From contig JBHIDR010000003.1 in assembly GCA_046760225.1 (NCBI GenBank), positions 1 through 46,537 of the forward strand: DNA of 46,537 nt. Direction: 5' to 3'. This document shows positions 19,423 through 45,768 of this stretch, piece by piece. Numbering within the stretch: the first letter of the stretch is position 1; every line of letters starts with the position of its first letter. Source of the DNA: Candidatus Aenigmatarchaeota archaeon (GTDB lineage: Archaea > Aenigmatarchaeota > Aenigmatarchaeia > Aenigmatarchaeales > JACQIB01). A program made the position numbers and the translations under genes. The notes below the pieces were generated by a model that did not search any database, was not told where the DNA came from, and saw only the letters and a list, made by a program, of their open reading frames with translations.

Positions 19423-22400
19423 ATGACCAAAAAAATCGACCCAAGGCTTATTCCCGAGGTCAACATAGGTACGGTTGGACACTGAGCAACTTGCGGGTTG
19501 CTTGGCTAAAAACGTGGACCACGGGAAATGCGTTGCATTAGATGAAGATATGTTTATTAATAATAAGCTAATTTCAGGACAGGAATTAATGGACTTAGCA
19601 AAATCTAAAGGGAATATTGTTTTTTCAAAGAAAAATGAATGGCTATACAACATTCCAAATCTTTATACTTATAGTCTTGATTCTGAATTACAAACTGTCA
19701 GAACGAAAGCACAAGTATTTATACAGAAATATGAAGGGCCCATTCTTAAAATGATTACAAAAAATGGTAAAAGTATAAAGGCAACTAAAGAACATCCTTT
19801 GCTAATAAATGAAGGCGGTAATTTAAAATGGAAAAAAATGAAAGAGATTAAAGTTGGGGATTATATTGCTGTTTCGAATTTGGGTACATTCCCTAGTAAA
19901 ATAAAACTTAAAAATAGTTATCTCAAGGAACTAAGAAAAAGGTATCCATTAGTTATGACAAATATTGATTATAACAAACTTAAAGAAAAGACGGGAAACT
20001 TCGTTAATTTCTCTATGTTAAATGAAAAGGAATTTAGTACTTTGCGTATTTTGGGTAATTTTTCTTTAAGAGAAATAGCAAAGGCGACAAATTTTTCTTA
20101 TTCATGGATTCAGAAGGCCCTAGGCCAAAAAAGGAAAACTACAAATAATGTTAAATTAGAACTATCAAAGTTTTTCAAAAGTAATAAACATAGAATAGTA
20201 AGACTTTCTAAAAACGAAATATTGGTTGGTTATAAATCTCGCCATTCTGGAAAAAATTATACTAAATTCAAAAACATAAAGATTATAGATCAGGATATAG
20301 TAAAATGGTTTGCTTTCTTGCACGCAGAAGGAAATACTCATTATAAAAGAATAGTAGTTGTTCAGAAAAATTATCCCGAATTATTAGAAGAGTTTGAAAA
20401 GATATCTAAAAGCATATTTGGAATTGAATCTAAAATCGCATTCGGAAATAATGATGTTAAAAGATGTGAATTATATTCAAAACCGTTTATTGAATATATA
20501 TGTTTAAGGTTTGGACTTAAGATTGGGGCATCAAAGAAATCGCCTATTTGTAACTGGATACTTTCTCTGCCACCAAACCTTCAAGCTTTATTTCTAAAAT
20601 ATTTTTTTGCTTTAGAGTGTGATGTAAGAAAAAATTCAATAAAAATAACTCAAATTAATAAAAGAAATATAAATATTATCTCTACTATCTTGCACAATTT
20701 TGGAATAGAACATCACCTAAAAGAGGGTGTAAGAAAGAATCGTAATATAGAATATAGTTTACGCATAGAAGGAAAGCACAACCTTAGAAGATTTATAGAA
20801 AAAATAGGTATTTATGATAAAAACAAATCGAGAAGAGTTAAAGCGTACCTAAAAACAATTAAGCCTACAAACCCACCATCATACTCACTTGTTCCGATAA
20901 ATCCGAACATCTTGATGGAACTTTCACAAATTTTACCTAATTTCACTCTTAAAGAAAACTATTACTATTATGCGAATGGAAAGATAACCAAAATTAGATT
21001 AAATAAGATAGTTAAGGATATCGCTTTATGGTTGAAAGAATCGGAGAAGCTTAAAGATAAGGGAGATTTATATACTATAGTTAAAAATTTTAAGATTCCT
21101 CAAACAACATTAGCAAGAAAAATCAATTCTTCAAAATCTATAGTTAATAAGATACTGAAAAATAAATACAAAAACAAAATTGTAAGGAGCAAGTTAAAAG
21201 ATACTATAAAACAGTTGGCAGAAGATAAAACTAAAAGAACTGAGATTATTTATCAAAACCTTAGTTTGTTAGCATCTCCTTTGATACGTTGGGATAAAGT
21301 AAATAGAATAGAACACTTGCATTATAACGACTATGTTGTTGATTTGTTTGTACCAAAGTATCATAACTTCGTAGGAGGATTTGGTGGTATAGTATGTCAT
21401 AACAGCACCCTTATAGAAGCAATTTCTGGCCGCTGGCCTGCCCTGCATTCTGAAGAGCTGAAAAGGGGAATCACAATAAAGCTCGGTTATGCTGATGCAA
21501 CAATATACAGGTGCCCGAAGTGTGAAAAGACGCTGAGCACAGACAAGTGCCTTGGCTGCATGGAAAAAGCAGAGCTGTTGCGCACAATCTCCTTTGTTGA
21601 TGCTCCTGGGCATGAGACACTCATGGCAACTGTGCTTGCAGGTGCCAGTTTGATGGATGGTGCACTGCTCATAATTGCTGCAAATGAGAAATGCCCTCAA
21701 CCGCAGACAGCCGAGCACCTCATGGCACTTGACATCAGTGGGATAAGAAATATCATAATAATCCAGAACAAGGTAGATCTTGTTGATGAGGAAAAAGCAA
21801 TGGAGAACTACAAGCAGATAAAGGAGTTTGTGAAAGGAACTGTTGCAGAGAACGCACCCATAATACCTGTTTCTGCGCAGCAGAAGATAAACATAGATTC
21901 TGTTCTTGAGGCAATACATAAAATCATGCCCACACCAGAAAGGAAGCCAGAAGCAAACCCAAAGATGCTGGTTGTGAGGAGCTTTGACATAAACAAGCCA
22001 GGTACAGAACCACCAAAGCTCAATGGTGGGGTTCTTGGTGGTGCAATAATAGAAGGAAAGCTTAAGAAAGGTGATGAAATAGAGGTTGCACCAGTAAAGA
22101 TAAAGGACAAATGGCGCAGCATCACAACAAAGATAAAGGGCCTGCAGAAGGCAGGCAAGAACCTTGATGAAGCAGGGCCAGGAGGACTGGTTGGGGTGAT
22201 GACAACACTTGACCCAAACCTCACAAAGGCTGACTATCTTGCAGGCAGTGTTGTTGGCCTGCCTGGCAATCTTCCCTCAATCTCAAACTCCCTGAGATTT
22301 GAAGCACATGTTTTCGAGGGAATACAGCCCATAAAGATGGGAGAGCTGCTCATGATAAACGTGGGTACATCCAGGACAGTTGGGGCTGTGGATTCAATCA

Positions 22401-22958: not shown

Positions 22959-23101
22959 AGTAGACTTCAGTACAATCATTCATATTGGGAGCAATTGGTG
23001 GAATTTTAGGTATTGCAGCATTCAAAAGGAAGAAGCCTGTGCGGAAGAAACGCTGAGCTGAAACTTTATATTGGCGTGCATTAAATTCTTTAGTGATAGC
23101 T

Positions 23102-23521
23102 ATGCCTGCATGCGAAAGATGTGGTAAGGGAGAAGCAGAATGGAGGTGCCAAGTCTGTGGAAAGATTGTATGTGAGAACTGCGCAAGGCCAACTGACAAG
23201 GGAGTATTCTGCGCTGACCATGTGCCAATAGAAAAGCCAAGGGGAGAAGTGAAGAAAAAGAGGGAGATAAGTGCAGGAGCAAAGGCAATAAAATCTATTT
23301 TCATTGTAATGCTGGTACTCACACTGGGGCTCGGCCTCATAGTCTCCATAGGAGAGGTCTTCATCAGCATGATTGGTATTCCGACTGATGCTGGACCTGC
23401 CCAAGGCATAATCGACATAATAATAAGGGTCAAGGGCAGCGGCACGTTGATACTTGTGGGCATGGCCATAATCACTGCACTGCTTGGAATTGCTTATATT
23501 GGAGCAAGAAGAGCAGGCTAG
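23102..23521 (+). CDS. Zinc-finger (B-box-like) membrane protein
   Basis: CxxC-x7-CxxC-x4-CxxC...CxxH followed by two TM helices. Confidence 0.75.
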   Translation: MPACERCGKGEAEWRCQVCGKIVCENCARPTDKGVFCADHVPIEKPRGEVKKKREISAGAKAIKSIFIVMLVLTLGLGLIVSIGEVFISMIGIPTDAGPAQGIIDIIIRVKGSGTLILVGMAIITALLGIAYIGARRAG

Positions 23522-23564: not shown

Positions 23565-24932
23565 ATGAAACAGATTTTGATATGGGGGGCGGTTTTCACA
23601 GTGATAATGGCTGCTTCAGCCATGGCTGTGGATTTTTCAGCTGATGTCAGCGAGGAGCCTGAGGTTTTTGCAGGCGACACAGCTGTGTTTGAAGCAACAA
23701 TAACAAATGCAGGAACCCAGAACTGGTTCTCCCTGTCTGTGTTCCCAACAGACTGGATAAGGCTTGAAAGCCCGTCTGTAAAGGTCCCAGGAGGGGGCTC
23801 CTTTACTGTCAAGATATATGTAACACCACCAGAGGACACAAAGGCCGGGAGCTATAGCCTGGATTTCCATGTGCAAAAGGCCGGGGAGAGGATAGAGGTC
23901 CCTTTTATTGTCAATGTCAAGCAGAGGACATCAGCTGCCCTGATAAAGGATTTTGAGACCAGCTGCACGTCATGCAAGGACAGCGTGAATGTTTCAATGA
24001 AGATTGAGAACGTTGGCACGTCGGCAATAAAGGACGCCACTCTTTCCCTCATGCTGGGCAAAAAGGAAAAGAAAATAGAGATTGGACAAATGAACATCAG
24101 CGGCTCAACAGAAATTTCAGAGACATTCTCACTTGAAGGATATTCTCCTGGCTCCTTTAGCATAGTTGCAGTGCTGATTGGTAACGGCATCAACCTTGAC
24201 ACAGAGACAAGGGAGTTTGAGGTTGCTGTGATTGACAACATTGACATAGAAAGGGACGTGTCAAGCTTCCTTTTCGGGAGCACAATAAAGCTGGTAGCAA
24301 CCAACAAGGGCAACACAGAGAAAGAAGCAGGAATATCATCATCTGTCTCCCAGTACTTCTGGGTGGTTTACTCGGGCCCGCAGCCAGATGAAAGGGGCGC
24401 TGAATGGGTCTGGAAGAGAACACTGAAACCTGGCGAGTCTGCAGAAGTAAAGTACAGCGAATTCATATGGCCGATACCAGTCATAATGATTATCCTAGTA
24501 ATTGCAATCTTATTCAGCTACCTGCAGGCAACAGCGCTTGCTGTGAAGAAGAGGATGTTCAGGACAATGGACGAGTATGCAATGTCAATCCTGATAAAGA
24601 ACAGGGGTGCAGAGGCGCACAATGTTCTTGTAAGGGACGTCATACCCCCTACCTTCAATCTCTCAGGCAAGTTCGAGACACTGAAGCCTGTTGCAAAGAA
24701 GACCGGCTTTGGCACAGAGCTTTTCTGGAAAATAGGAAGGGTAAGGAAGGGAGAAGAGATGATACTCCACTACAGGATAAAGCCTGTGAGCAGGATAAGG
24801 GGCACAATGCAGCTGCCTGCTGCCAGTGTGAAGGCAAAGAGAGGGGACAAGACGCTGTTCGTTTATTCAGGCAAGCCAGTAATAACAGGTGCACACGGGC
24901 CCAAGCCAAAACTCAAGGTAAAGACCGAGTAG
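23565..24932 (+). CDS. Signal-peptide-bearing membrane-anchored Ig-like (CARDB/DUF11-like) surface protein
   Basis: MKQILIWG... signal, ITNAG/IENVG/TNKGN Ig-like strands, one TM, cytoplasmic IKNRG..VRDVIP domain. Confidence 0.75.
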   Translation: MKQILIWGAVFTVIMAASAMAVDFSADVSEEPEVFAGDTAVFEATITNAGTQNWFSLSVFPTDWIRLESPSVKVPGGGSFTVKIYVTPPEDTKAGSYSLDFHVQKAGERIEVPFIVNVKQRTSAALIKDFETSCTSCKDSVNVSMKIENVGTSAIKDATLSLMLGKKEKKIEIGQMNISGSTEISETFSLEGYSPGSFSIVAVLIGNGINLDTETREFEVAVIDNIDIERDVSSFLFGSTIKLVATNKGNTEKEAGISSSVSQYFWVVYSGPQPDERGAEWVWKRTLKPGESAEVKYSEFIWPIPVIMIILVIAILFSYLQATALAVKKRMFRTMDEYAMSILIKNRGAEAHNVLVRDVIPPTFNLSGKFETLKPVAKKTGFGTELFWKIGRVRKGEEMILHYRIKPVSRIRGTMQLPAASVKAKRGDKTLFVYSGKPVITGAHGPKPKLKVKTE

Positions 24933-24933
24933 A

Positions 24934-24941
24934 TTTAAATA
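24934..24941 (+). promoter_or_regulatory. TATA box for tRNA-Tyr
   Basis: TTTAAATA ending 26 nt before the tRNA 5' end. Confidence 0.6.
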
Positions 24942-25002
24942 ATCTACAGCACCAATTTCTTGATATCCCGCGATGGCTTAGTCTGGTAGAGCGACCGGCT
25001 GT

Positions 25003-25653
25003 GCGGTGAGAAAGCATGACGACACTAAAACCTATAATAGAACAACAAGGTACAGTTTCAGAAGCAAAGGCTAGAATATTGGCGAACCTCAAGGCTGATG
25101 GAAGTACATGCAGAAGCGGTACGAACTATACAAAAAAATATGAGGTACGTGATGCCGAGCAACTTAATAGGTTTGCCAAAGACCTGAAACATGTATATGG
25201 GCTGAACATAAAGCGCATGCTTAACACATCAGGAATAACAGGAATGCCCATAGAAGCTGTATACCTTAGGTCCAAATTAGCATTTGAAGATTTGCAGAAA
25301 TTTGGACGCTTCAGGTCAGAAGACTGGAATGTACCTCAGCAGATAAAAAACTCTTCCAAGCAAGTTAAGGCCGCCTTTTTAATGGCCTTTTTTGATGACG
25401 AAGGATCTGTTATCAAATCGAGAAGGGAAATACGCCTTTACTCGATAAATATTGATGGCCTTAATGAAATAGCAAAGCTGCTTGAAGAGTTTGAAATAAA
25501 GTGCAGTATACGAAGTGGTTATGGAAAACGAAGAAATGTGTTTGCCATTATAATTCGTGGCGTAGAAAACCTTGAGAGGTTTTCAAAACATATAGGTTTT
25601 GGTGTTAAGACTAAAAAAAGAAAACTAAAAAGTATGCTTTCCACTGTGGCCAA
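25003..25653 (+). mobile_element. 651-nt relaxed-BHB tRNA intron at 35/36 encoding a LAGLIDADG endonuclease
   Basis: Central helix GGCT/GGCC, 3' bulge AA^A, long closing stem GCGGTG-A-GAAAGCATG / TATGCTTTC-CACTGT. Confidence 0.82.
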
Positions 25654-25684
25654 AGGCGAGCACGCTAAGTGCTTGTTGCGTTAG
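25016..25684 (+). CDS. Intron-encoded double-motif LAGLIDADG homing endonuclease
   Basis: ILANLKADG and FLMAFFDDEG motifs; SD GGTGAG; 214 aa if read from circular intron, 222 aa from precursor. Confidence 0.9.
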   Translation: MTTLKPIIEQQGTVSEAKARILANLKADGSTCRSGTNYTKKYEVRDAEQLNRFAKDLKHVYGLNIKRMLNTSGITGMPIEAVYLRSKLAFEDLQKFGRFRSEDWNVPQQIKNSSKQVKAAFLMAFFDDEGSVIKSRREIRLYSINIDGLNEIAKLLEEFEIKCSIRSGYGKRRNVFAIIIRGVENLERFSKHIGFGVKTKKRKLKSMLSTVAKGEHAKCLLR

Positions 25685-25697
25685 CACTCGCTCGGAA
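25656..25697 (+). other. 42-nt tRNA-Tyr intron at canonical 37/38
   Basis: Inner stem GCGAG/CTCGC, CTG/CGG central pairing, 3' bulge AA^A. Confidence 0.82.
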
Positions 25698-25748
25698 ACC
25701 GGTAGATCGGGAGTTCGAATCTCCCTCGCGGGACCATTTGTGATTTTT

Positions 25749-26363
25749 ATGTCCAGTATGCGAGAGCTCAGGAAGGTCTATATGCAGAACAGGAGGCAGA
25801 TAAGGAATTTTTTGGAATCAACCAAAAATAAGAATGATGGTTTCCTGCTGCAGGAGATGTTCTTCTGCATGCTCACTTCCCAGACAAAGGCAGCCAACTG
25901 CCGTGCTTCTGTTGACAGGCTGAAGGGATGCAGGGACCTCTTTGAAGCGAACATGGAAGAAATAAGGAACTCCCTTGCTGGTGTGAGGTTCGCTGACAGG
26001 AAGGCACAGTACCTTTTCAAGGCAAGGCAAAAGCTGCCCAGGATAAAGGAGAACCTTTCCCTTTCGCCATTCGAGCAAAGGGAATGGCTGGTCGATAATG
26101 TGAAGGGAATGGGCATGAAACTGGCTTCACACTATCTGAGGAACATAGGGGTGTTTGGCCTGGCTATACTTGACGTCCATGTGCAGAGGTTCATGCAGGA
26201 AAACTGGAAGTTCCGGGGAGAAGTGGGCAAGCTGAACAGGAAGCAGTACCTTGAGAACGAGAAGGAGTTCTTCAGGCTAGCGAAAAAGCTTAAAATGAGG
26301 CCGGAGGAGCTTGACATAGCAATATGGATGCTGGGCAACAGGAGCGGCAATTTCTACGGTTAA
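25749..26363 (+). CDS. ogg: N-glycosylase/DNA lyase (8-oxoguanine DNA glycosylase, Ogg2-type)
   Basis: EMFFCMLT, GVRF, REWLVDNVKGMGMKLASHYLRNIG, AILDVH; start 25740-25758 uncertain. Confidence 0.88.
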   Translation: MSSMRELRKVYMQNRRQIRNFLESTKNKNDGFLLQEMFFCMLTSQTKAANCRASVDRLKGCRDLFEANMEEIRNSLAGVRFADRKAQYLFKARQKLPRIKENLSLSPFEQREWLVDNVKGMGMKLASHYLRNIGVFGLAILDVHVQRFMQENWKFRGEVGKLNRKQYLENEKEFFRLAKKLKMRPEELDIAIWMLGNRSGNFYG

Positions 26364-26364
26364 C

Positions 26365-26372
26365 TTTAAATA
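26365..26372 (+). promoter_or_regulatory. TATA box for 5S rRNA
   Basis: TTTAAATA ending 23 nt before the 5S 5' end. Confidence 0.6.
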
Positions 26373-26394
26373 CCTTTGAGAAAGTAATAATCAT

Positions 26395-26554
26395 TGGTCG
26401 CGGTCAAAACGGAGTGGCAAGATCCGTTCCCGTTCCGAAACATCCTTCAGAGAAGCTGCACCTTACCTGGAGGGTGAGGAAACACGGTAATGAATCGCTC
26501 CAGTGATCTGGACTGTACTGTGGAAAACATGGGAAATCCAGGACGCTGCGACCA
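26395..26554 (+). rRNA. rrf: 5S rRNA with 43-nt intron; join(26395..26439,26483..26554), 117 nt
   Basis: Helix I TGGTCGCGG/CTGCGACCA, helix II GGAGTGG/TCGCTCC, loop C CCCGTTCCGAAC-ACGG restored after removal, loop E TGTACT...GGGAAA. Confidence 0.9.
26440..26482 (+). other. 43-nt BHB-type intron in 5S rRNA loop C
   Basis: CCGT TCCG AA^A CATCCTTCAG..CTGGAGGGTG AGGA AA^C ACGG: outer 4 bp, central 3 bp + G.A, 10-bp inner stem. Confidence 0.85.
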
Positions 26555-26587
26555 TAACTTTTTATTCTACCAAAATAATAGAATTTC

Positions 26588-26791
26588 ATGGCAAAGAGAA
26601 GAAAACAAAGGAAAGTAAGCAAAAGGCAAGTCATGAGGGAACTTGCCATTGGTCTCATTATTTTAGTATCTGTGATCATACTTGCCATAAGTGCTTTTTC
26701 TGATATAATCGATCTCGTGATTATAGTGGGACTTATTATTCTTGCAATCATCATAGCAACAATATTTGCAGGAAAGGGTTCACTTGATTAG
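26588..26791 (+). CDS. Small two-TM membrane protein
   Basis: Basic N-terminus then hydrophobic hairpin, 67 aa. Confidence 0.65.
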   Translation: MAKRRKQRKVSKRQVMRELAIGLIILVSVIILAISAFSDIIDLVIIVGLIILAIIIATIFAGKGSLD

Positions 26792-26830
26792 AAAAAGTAT
26801 TTAAACTGTTACTGCTCATTTCTTAAGTAT

Positions 26831-26938
26831 GCCCGGGTAGTATGTCTTGGTGTGGCATTTCACCCGAGAGCTAAAAGTGGTCTAGTATCTCGGCCTGTCG
26901 AGTCGAGGACCTGGGTTCAAATCCCAGCCCGGGCGCCA
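26831..26938 (+). tRNA. tRNA-Asp(GTC) with 32-nt D-arm intron (26844..26875, position 13/14)
   Basis: GCCCGGG/CCCGGGC acceptor, G73, CCA, loop CTGTCGA; intron TAGT AT^G TCTTGG..CCGAGA GCTA AA^A. Confidence 0.92.
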
Positions 26939-27008
26939 CACCAACCCCTTTATAAACCTTGATATTCTATGGGTTGTTAGGACATTTTGGAAGTTCGAAA
27001 AAAAATAG

Positions 27009-27182
27009 GTGATAAGAATAGCAGAGTTCAGAAGGGGCGGTTTCGACAGAAACAGAAGGCCTCGCGAAATGCATAAAGCTACTTGCGCTGAATGCGGCAA
27101 GGAATGCGAAGTTCCGTTCAAGCCTAAATCAGACAGGCCGGTTTATTGCAAAGAATGCTTTATGAAAAGGAGAAAGTTCTAA
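27009..27182 (+). CDS. CxxC-x17-CxxC zinc-ribbon protein
   Basis: PREMHKATCAECGKECEVPFKPKSDRPVYCKECF; below ORF-track length cut-off; start GTG 27009 or ATA 27018. Confidence 0.88.
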   Translation: MIRIAEFRRGGFDRNRRPREMHKATCAECGKECEVPFKPKSDRPVYCKECFMKRRKF

Positions 27183-44919: not shown

Positions 44920-45768
44920 ATCTGAAAACTTAGATTTTATGAATGTCCTAAGCAACTTATCTAAAATATCCATCTTTCTGGAACCTACCCAATTACCTTT
45001 AACTACAATAGTCTCATCTGAAAAGCCTATAATCTTCTTGAATTTTCTTATATACTCTTCTTTATGTATAGCTATTTCATGTCTATGTGTTCTAAGTATA
45101 CAATCTACTCCAAGATCTCTATGCATTTTGTATATGTCTAGCAATACTTCATCATTGTAGCAAACTGCAACTAAGCTCCTACTCCCTTTATTTAAAAGCA
45201 CAGATCCTTCATCGTCCCAAAATGCTCTTAAAAATGCAATCTTATTTTGCTTGCTTCCTTTCAAAATTTCTCGAGGCACTGTTGTTGATGCTTTTGGATC
45301 TGATGTTGTATAAGCTGGCGTGTAACTTAAAAGGTCCTCTATTATTAGTTTCGAACGGAAAGTTGCAGTAATACAGTTCCACTTATCGACATATATGTAA
45401 GGTTTACTTAGACCATAGACCTTTTTGAAATCCCCTGTAAACTGTCGTATAAGACCTTTAGATTTATTTCCATAGCTTATTCTATATCTTTTAGGCATTA
45501 CATTTCCGTCAAACAAGCAATGGGCTATAATCCTTGTTTTCTCTATACTTAGACCTTTCTGAATCACTGGCCTTTCCTTTATACAAGTTCCTTTTAAATA
45601 CCTTTTAGCTGTATTTAATGAAATGTTTGTTTTTTCTGCAATCTCTTGCATTGTATGTTTTTTATTTCTAAGTCTAAACATTTCCTTTACTTTTTTCTTT
45701 GGCAAAGGTTTTGCGTATTTCCTTGCAAATGCAATTTGATTTTTCTTCATTGCTGTCATTTTCTCCAT
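44920..45768 (-). CDS. Intron-encoded HTH + double-motif LAGLIDADG endonuclease (283 aa from circular intron; 314 aa to 44824 on precursor)
   Basis: TMQEIAEKTNISLNTAKRYL HTH, IIAHCLFDG and FLRAFWDDEG motifs. Confidence 0.9.

Follow-up and report, generated by a model that had tools for sequence, protein, structure and literature searches.

Archaeal ribosomal RNA (rRNA) genes contain introns of the bulge–helix–bulge (BHB) type that are removed by the splicing endonuclease EndA and contain a LAGLIDADG gene, with I-DmoI and I-PorI as examples; homing is believed to be the way in which these introns move. Archaeal transfer RNA (tRNA) genes with several introns, non-canonical intron positions and ordered intron removal are likewise already known. 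In the multi-intron tRNAs of Thermoproteales, Thaumarchaeota, ARMAN and Asgard archaea, several EndA-dependent introns interrupt one tRNA, and PMC5829648 associates them with a heteromeric or broad-specificity EndA. Endonuclease-bearing BHB introns in archaea are mentioned in PMC6125680 and PMC3984707, and the latter also describes group I introns in the anticodon loop of bacterial tRNAs, sometimes with a homing endonuclease. In the present study, we analysed a stretch of 46,537 nucleotides (hereafter the window; contig JBHIDR010000003.1 of a Candidatus Aenigmatarchaeota archaeon), which is contig 3 of a genome of 851,505 bases in 83 contigs that is 83% complete and has a size typical of DPANN-type archaea. 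Positions 24967–25736 (+) of the window very probably constitute a functional three-exon tRNA-Tyr(GUA) gene with two introns that would be excised by EndA and RtcB. This reading draws on the sequence anatomy of the locus, its conservation and covariation, its calculated fold and the finding of EndA and RtcB genes in the genome.

The locus shares with the multi-intron archaeal tRNAs the predicted dependence of several introns on EndA, a non-canonical intron position and an EndA that is probably heteromeric or of broad specificity. In contrast to those tRNAs, its two introns are separated by just 2 nt and interrupt the anticodon itself (site 35/36), one of them is 651 nt long and protein-coding, and the host belongs to a DPANN-type lineage. 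The large intron resembles the archaeal rRNA BHB introns in its predicted removal by EndA and its LAGLIDADG gene; however, its host gene encodes a tRNA and its enzyme is of the intein-type LAGLIDADG_3 family. Bacterial anticodon-loop introns occupy the same part of the tRNA, but they are self-splicing ribozymes, whereas no ribozyme is detectable in the large intron of the window and there is no room for one.

Exon 1 (24967–25002; coordinates refer to the + strand of the window unless another is given) covers tRNA positions 1–35, aligns with the 5′ halves in relatives and consists, in order, of the acceptor strand CCCGCGA, the D arm, the anticodon-stem strand ACCGG (27–31) and CTGT, ending in C32, U33, G34 and U35. 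Intron 1 (25003–25653; 651 nt), a BHB intron with a homing endonuclease gene (HEG) at site 35/36, is followed by a micro-exon, AG (25654–25655), which supplies A36, the third anticodon base, and G37. Intron 2 (25656–25697; 42 nt) has a candidate BHB motif of relaxed form and lies at the canonical site 37/38, and exon 3 (25698–25736) extends from A38 to A73 plus an encoded CCA. After A25698, exon 3 contains CCGGT, which pairs with ACCGG, a 5-nt variable region, the T arm (GGGAG/CTCCC, loop TTCGAAT), the acceptor strand TCGCGGG, A73 and CCA. Archaeal tyrosine tRNAs are marked by a C1–G72 pair with A73. In the window, C24967 pairs with G25732 and position 73 is A25733; the four stems are paired, and removal of both introns would give the GUA anticodon in a loop reading CUGUAGA. 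On re-reading of the sequence, every coordinate of an earlier note on this DNA held, as did the Tyr identity that the note had drawn from C1–G72/A73. The gene at 24967–25736 was called neither by ARAGORN without introns nor by Rfam at the gathering score. With introns allowed, ARAGORN returned Tyr(GTA) with a single 693-nt intron; the program maximises the tRNA score only, and the splice motif is not part of its criteria.

A DNA search of 61 relatives yielded 20 loci, eight of which contain a tRNA-Tyr orthologue (L002, L003, L004, L005, L006, L007, L009 and L012). All eight orthologues read CTGTAG, a single intron of 33–48 nt, A and then the 3′ stem strand, and the mature loop expected in this lineage is therefore CUGUAGA. 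Compared with the tRNA-Tyr genes of these relatives, the window has 651 extra bases exactly between T35 and A36. Furthermore, the 41-nt intron of the same-genus relative (L012) aligns over its full length with 25656–25697, including the conserved TTAGC and, near the 3′ end, GCTC(A/G)GAA. Because a homologous intron thus sits in the tRNA-Tyr of relatives, intron 2 is best regarded as an ordinary ancestral 37/38 intron. Among sequencing runs, 24940–25760 was matched by DNA contigs of a single study and by no RNA run. An intron-less allele of the window locus was not found in four DNA runs. An apparent joint of 25002 to 25681 with 25 letters between was rejected, as it came from contigs of another organism with different flanks and a tRNA-Tyr matching that of L003.

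A BHB motif has two 3-nt bulges, 4 bp apart and flanked by helices, and is cut two bases into each bulge. This rule was cross-checked on the known 37/38 geometry before being applied to the ends of intron 1. There, the central helix (H) is GGCU/GGCC with 4/4 pairs; its 5′ strand (24997–25000; G30, G31, C32 and U33) is also part of the anticodon stem and loop, and its 3′ strand is GGCC at 25648–25651. The 5′ bulge is G34 U35 | G25003 (GU|G) and the 3′ bulge A25652 A25653 | A25654 (AA|A), so that the motif predicts cuts after U35 and before A25654 of the AG. On the intron side, the outer helix (h) joins 25004–25017 to 25634–25646 by 13 pairs, with A25009 bulged; its 5′ arm includes a Shine–Dalgarno-like run, GGTGA, and extends to the second base of the HEG start codon. 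Together, the two intron ends form a duplex with a calculated energy of −19.4 kcal/mol, far more stable than 200 shuffled versions (mean −7.2, s.d. 2.6), and the unconstrained minimum free energy (MFE) structure of the whole 770-nt precursor contains exactly the pairs of H and h.

The same arrangement recurred in DNA that encodes homologues of the HEG, for which we retrieved 78 loci from metagenomes (of 197 confirmed matches) and 80 from genomes (of 102). The genome loci were found by scanning with an alignment of the HEG; a single-protein scan of the genome contigs gave no match. The full three-exon architecture was present in nine other distinct loci (L052, L053, L054, L096, L055, L133, L136, L145 (= L074) and L157), and the 5′ junction was also present in L051, where the locus is truncated. 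Pattern detection of tRNA-Tyr missed L053, L157, L134 and L140, where the D arm has additional introns or the D stem is divergent; these loci were placed by eye. It also gave a spurious call for the truncated L051. Across the 10 HEG-bearing loci, window included, H had 4/4 pairs, the 5′ bulge read GU|N and the 3′ bulge A(A/U)|A, and AG followed in every case. Helix h, which played no part in finding these loci, comprised 10–14 bp of differing sequence and covaried, with energies of −14.5 to −24.4 kcal/mol versus shuffle means of −6.2 to −11.2. Some loci had a third or fourth intron beside the 35/36 and 37/38 pair, in the D region (L053 and L157), the variable region (L052 and L064) or the T arm (L133 and L145).

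Short introns of 17–32 nt occupied the same 35/36 site in further loci, with the same H and bulges, a hairpin replacing the open reading frame (ORF), and then AG and a second intron. Among the 28 distinct 35/36 introns (10 long and 18 short), AG followed directly in all 28, and 238 of 252 cells (94%) held standard pairs in register versus 21–50% with the partner slid by one or two positions, although the 18 short introns were located using the pairing of H and h and their percentages are biased upward. Each of positions h0–h3 showed at least four pair types, and one A31 variant was paired with U. The C-terminal tails of the HEG homologues read the same DNA stretch in two different frames, and this DNA is therefore conserved as RNA or nucleic acid and not as protein. 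The CTGTAG of the eight orthologues, the alignment of intron 2 with the same-genus intron and the AG after every 35/36 intron together support the reading of the earlier note, in which three exons, the middle one of 2 nt, assemble a CUGUAGA loop.

Considering these results, we propose the following scenario for the maturation of this tRNA. In the precursor, G30–U33 would pair with the GGCC at the 3′ end of intron 1, and the intron ends would form a long helix, creating the BHB motif. Cuts after U35 and before A25654 would then release intron 1, presumably as a circle, and CUGU would be ligated to AG. After the loss of intron 1, the anticodon stem could re-form, and C32–G34 (with U35) could pair with the 3′ end of the 42-nt intron to give the canonical 37/38 motif. 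Removal of intron 2 would join G37 to A38 and yield the loop CUGUAGA. With the tRNA body imposed, the second motif consists of C32–G34 paired with CGG (25693–25695), a 3′ bulge AA|A, a 2-nt 5′ bulge and the helix GCGAG/CTCGC.

The order of the two events is suggested by the nucleotides that the motifs share. G30–U33 lie in H of intron 1, C32–U35 in H of intron 2 and G30–G31 in the anticodon stem; because the two motifs compete for C32 and U33, they are mutually exclusive. The 5′ site of intron 2 requires U35 joined to A36. The canonical intron-2 helix H has at least 3/4 pairs in 9 of the 10 loci, and a reverse-order helix, in which the last 4 nt of intron 1 replace CUGU, has at most 2/4 pairs in 9 of the 10; in the window alone, the two tie at 3/4 pairs each. 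Simultaneous removal of both introns seems unlikely, because a free AG dinucleotide could hardly be ligated. The statement of the earlier note that intron 1 must go first thus stands in part: the motifs exclude each other and the canonical helix is the better one in 9/10 loci, but the two helices tie in the window, and the 3′ site of intron 2 could be cut at any time. Removal of intron 1 first is a plausible, conserved logic of these loci, which does not amount to proof of the order in cells. For other archaea, PMC8450103 already describes the idea that a motif becomes able to form only once another intron has been removed.

Several observations weigh against the three-exon reading. Opposite the 5′ bulge of intron 1 there is an extra U25647, which makes the motif of the window slightly relaxed; the motif is strict in 9/10 homologues. 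Helix H of intron 2 has only 3/4 pairs, with a U35–U25692 mismatch or a 2-nt 5′ bulge, so that the caution of the earlier note about two relaxed 5′ bulges is correct for the window. The intron-2 motif arises only in a fold with a constrained tRNA body, and the unconstrained intermediate gives no cloverleaf, a common outcome of unconstrained folding of tRNAs. The U35–U mismatch and the relaxed geometry also occur in relatives that have intron 2 alone, and the enzyme of this lineage therefore evidently copes with a relaxed motif. The last 31 nt of the endonuclease ORF run past intron 1, over the micro-exon and into intron 2, and the excised intron 1 would provide no in-frame stop for the HEG, except where translation proceeds around a circle or on the precursor. 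The earlier note had asked whether another tRNA-Tyr exists; none was found in the genome by ARAGORN, by exon BLAST, by a 5′-half pattern or with the Rfam model, but with about 20 detectable tRNAs in all and a genome completeness of 83%, this absence is weak evidence. A scan of the genome for a plain GUA stem-loop gave 138 chance matches and was uninformative.

Other explanations of the locus fit these data less well. The single 693-nt intron at 35/36 drawn by ARAGORN with introns, with the next exon starting at A25696 and a loop CUGUAAA with A37, preserves the GTA anticodon and has the merit that one splicing event suffices. However, no BHB can be drawn for it: a cut before A25696 needs GGCU/GCUC pairing, which on reading by hand fails at the third pair. 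Moreover, it requires intron 2 to end in A plus a purine, whereas the final bases are AT in L055, L133 and L136, CC in L052 and TC in L053 and L096, so that 6 of the 10 loci would have no Tyr loop, and all eight orthologues have G37 and not A37. We consider this solution very unlikely. A shade less likely still is one canonical 695-nt intron at 37/38, formed through GTGAG (25006–25010) and CTCGC (25687–25691), which would leave the loop CUGUGCA with C37 and the anticodon GUG, and hence a mis-decoding or dead tRNA. In its favour, this helix reaches −16.0 kcal/mol in the window, nearly matching the helices proposed here, and C32–G34 with CGG and an AA|A bulge give a near-canonical BHB. Yet its weak counterparts in the nine other loci reach only −3.0 to −9.4 kcal/mol, so that the earlier rejection of a GUG single-intron fold is upheld by its lack of conservation; the MFE structure of the full precursor pairs 25004–25017 with 25634–25646 instead; C37 and a His anticodon on a C1–G72/A73 body would be non-functional; and the genome has a separate tRNA-His(GTG) on contig C6.

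The three-exon gene might instead be a pseudogene killed by a mobile endonuclease cassette, with the real tRNA-Tyr in the unassembled 17% of the genome. The incompleteness of the genome (83% complete), the poor detection of its tRNAs and a same-genus relative that has no such insertion would all agree with this, and it is the least improbable of the alternatives, though quite improbable nonetheless, since the tRNA has intact exons in which every stem pairs, a precise BHB marks the borders of the insertion and restores GUA-G, and 10 long and 18 short versions keep the arrangement with covarying helices across divergent lineages, which dead genes would not. That intron 1 is a self-splicing group I intron that harbours a homing endonuclease, like those in the anticodon loops of bacterial tRNAs, can be given hardly any credence. 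LAGLIDADG-bearing group I introns do occur in DPANN-type archaea, yet those described in PMC6125680 are all in rRNA genes (39/39). In the window, no Intron_gpI match appeared in Rfam at E ≤ 10 over 24800–27100, the ORF takes 638 of the 651 nt and leaves no room for a ribozyme core, the intron ends form a BHB, and versions of 17–32 nt exist at the same site.

The functional three-exon gene would depend on a splicing endonuclease and an RtcB ligase, and the genome encodes both. Two EndA genes lie about 0.8 kb apart on contig C2 (C2:22994–24328; L210:1297–2862), in the regions 22994–23254 and 24053–24328, with PF01974 matches of 85 and 66 bits; each also matches PF02778 and thus has both an N- and a C-terminal domain. 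In the two-repeat EndA model, the N-terminal repeat corresponds to the 163-residue product and the C-terminal repeat to the other, which suggests that the pair is a split, heteromeric form of the two-repeat enzyme; an unrelated ORF of 189 residues separates the two genes. Cutting of relaxed or non-canonical motifs has been reported for heteromeric and loop-bearing EndAs in PMC5829648. RtcB is encoded on contig C35 (497 bits). Its gene (G000:C35:1477–2834) reads in two pieces: two TAG codons separate a short match to the N terminus from the bulk of the protein, for which a shifted frame, an inserted element or faulty assembly could be responsible. Most ARAGORN tRNA calls in this genome need an intron, often at odd positions, and its tRNA set is probably heavily disrupted and under-annotated.

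The prediction that the large intron encodes a homing endonuclease goes beyond the earlier note. The ORF (25016–25684; 222 residues) fills 638 of the 651 nt (98%) of intron 1 and matches the LAGLIDADG_3 family (Pfam PF14528) with 49.1 bits versus a cut-off of 22.5 (E = 7e−13), an intein-type enzyme family. Motif 1 ends in LKADG (D28 and G29) and motif 2 in FFDDEG (D128 and G130); none of these four residues varies among 35 sequences, at least 90% of which also retain E129, and the start, MTTLKP, is conserved. Judged from these features, the gene looks intact as a two-motif LAGLIDADG HEG. Its homologues (61 at E ≤ 0.001 among 267 candidates) are 45–70% identical and 200–230 residues long, and the source labels of some of them are Aenigmatarchaeota and Woesearchaeota. 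The best solved relative of the product is the endonuclease chain 1dq3, at only E = 1.1e−5.

No close copy of the HEG was found elsewhere in the order to which the window belongs (best identity 36%), the same-genus genome G001 being without a match, and ARAGORN detected no further tRNA-borne LAGLIDADG copies in 30 loci of this order and six regions of the own genome. Copies that are 50–70% identical occupy the same site in other lineages. The absence of the HEG from the rest of the order, including the same-genus genome, fits a mobile element. Intron 1 most likely arrived as such an element, which would have homed into the anticodon of tRNA-Tyr genes with a pre-existing canonical intron. The genome contains 12 LAGLIDADG matches, including window positions 45010–45573 (−) and 20375–20863 (+) and nine other places. 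Several of them lie inside open frames of 1017–1771 residues and are probably inteins, and one is in a 315-residue frame near the end of the window.

The intron-borne gene belongs to a family that is associated with tRNA-Tyr genes of DPANN-type archaea beyond the introns themselves. Among 67 close-family copies, 10 lie inside a 35/36 intron, 19 downstream of a tRNA-Tyr with a short ORF-less 35/36 intron and 12 downstream of a tRNA-Tyr without a 35/36 intron; the remaining 26 are unplaced, some of them lacking upstream sequence. Thus, 41 of the 67 copies are in or beside a tRNA-Tyr gene, a count that expresses association only. More distant homologues are free-standing genes that start roughly 50–200 nt after the 3′ end of tRNA-Tyr. 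In a quick tree, the 10 intron-borne copies fell into three groups adjoining free-standing ones, and the well-supported branches force at least two changes between the intron-borne and the free-standing state. Furthermore, the free-standing copies in L129:1150–1900 and L072:1100–1900 are flanked by a 13–14-nt direct repeat of the tRNA 3′ end, which suggests that they were inserted into the 3′ end of the tRNA-Tyr gene and that this end was duplicated. We tentatively suggest, without holding it to be the probable outcome, that one endonuclease lineage may specialise on tRNA-Tyr across DPANN archaea, moving between a free-standing position downstream of the gene and the interior of the 35/36 intron; both the endonuclease activity and this target are predicted from the sequences.

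This distribution recalls collaborative (trans) homing in phages, a concept described in PMC3984707. In both systems, a free-standing endonuclease gene stands beside a gene with an ORF-less intron, and related copies are found inside the intron. The phage case involves a group I intron, whereas the tRNA-Tyr intron is a BHB intron spliced by proteins and not a ribozyme. Unlike in the phage system, 12 free-standing copies stand beside a tRNA-Tyr without a 35/36 intron, and some free-standing copies are flanked by the tRNA-3′-end repeat, hinting at a different insertion site.

In a literature search that lay largely outside subscription journals, we found no published report of a homing endonuclease inside a tRNA BHB intron or of a family of endonucleases linked to a single tRNA gene. 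The term "homing" did not occur in the tRNA-intron reviews PMC4090602 and PMC4033280 in a term search. No literature was found that joins LAGLIDADG, "tRNA intron" and DPANN, and a search joining "BHB intron", "homing endonuclease" and "tRNA gene" returned no title or abstract about archaeal tRNA introns.

Around the gene, a TATA-like box, TTTAAATA (24935–24942), precedes the 5′ end of the tRNA by about 25 nt and is by position a candidate archaeal promoter. An ORF directly 3′ of the tRNA (25740–26363, +) matches the N-glycosylase/DNA lyase model NF002305 with 157 bits, below the cut-off of 183 bits. The gene order tRNA-Tyr, (HEG), 5S rRNA recurs in L141 and L159. The 5S rRNA gene of the window (26396–26554, +; 48.9 bits) has an insertion of about 45 nt after a segment ending in CCCGTTCCGAA, at roughly 26436–26480, with a hairpin CCTTCAG/CTGGAGG; the 5S genes adjoining the HEG in L141 and L159 are without this insertion, which may be a BHB intron.

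Standard tRNA finders miss or mis-draw the gene described here, and genomes of this kind will consequently seem to be without tRNA-Tyr. [quoted passage not shown] It is known that introns of archaeal tRNAs multiply and pass from one gene to another, by a mechanism that is still open. A protein-spliced tRNA intron with an apparently intact homing endonuclease offers a testable mechanism for such movement, as do related endonucleases, both free-standing and intron-borne, that are associated with a single tRNA gene. If the endonuclease lineage does specialise on tRNA-Tyr as tentatively suggested above, it would be the BHB-intron counterpart of collaborative homing and of invasion by endonuclease genes, and it would explain for the first time, in concrete terms and at the DNA level, how tRNA introns spread in archaea. 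The 2-nt micro-exon would then result from the targeting of the anticodon by the element in a gene where the universal 37/38 intron was already in place.

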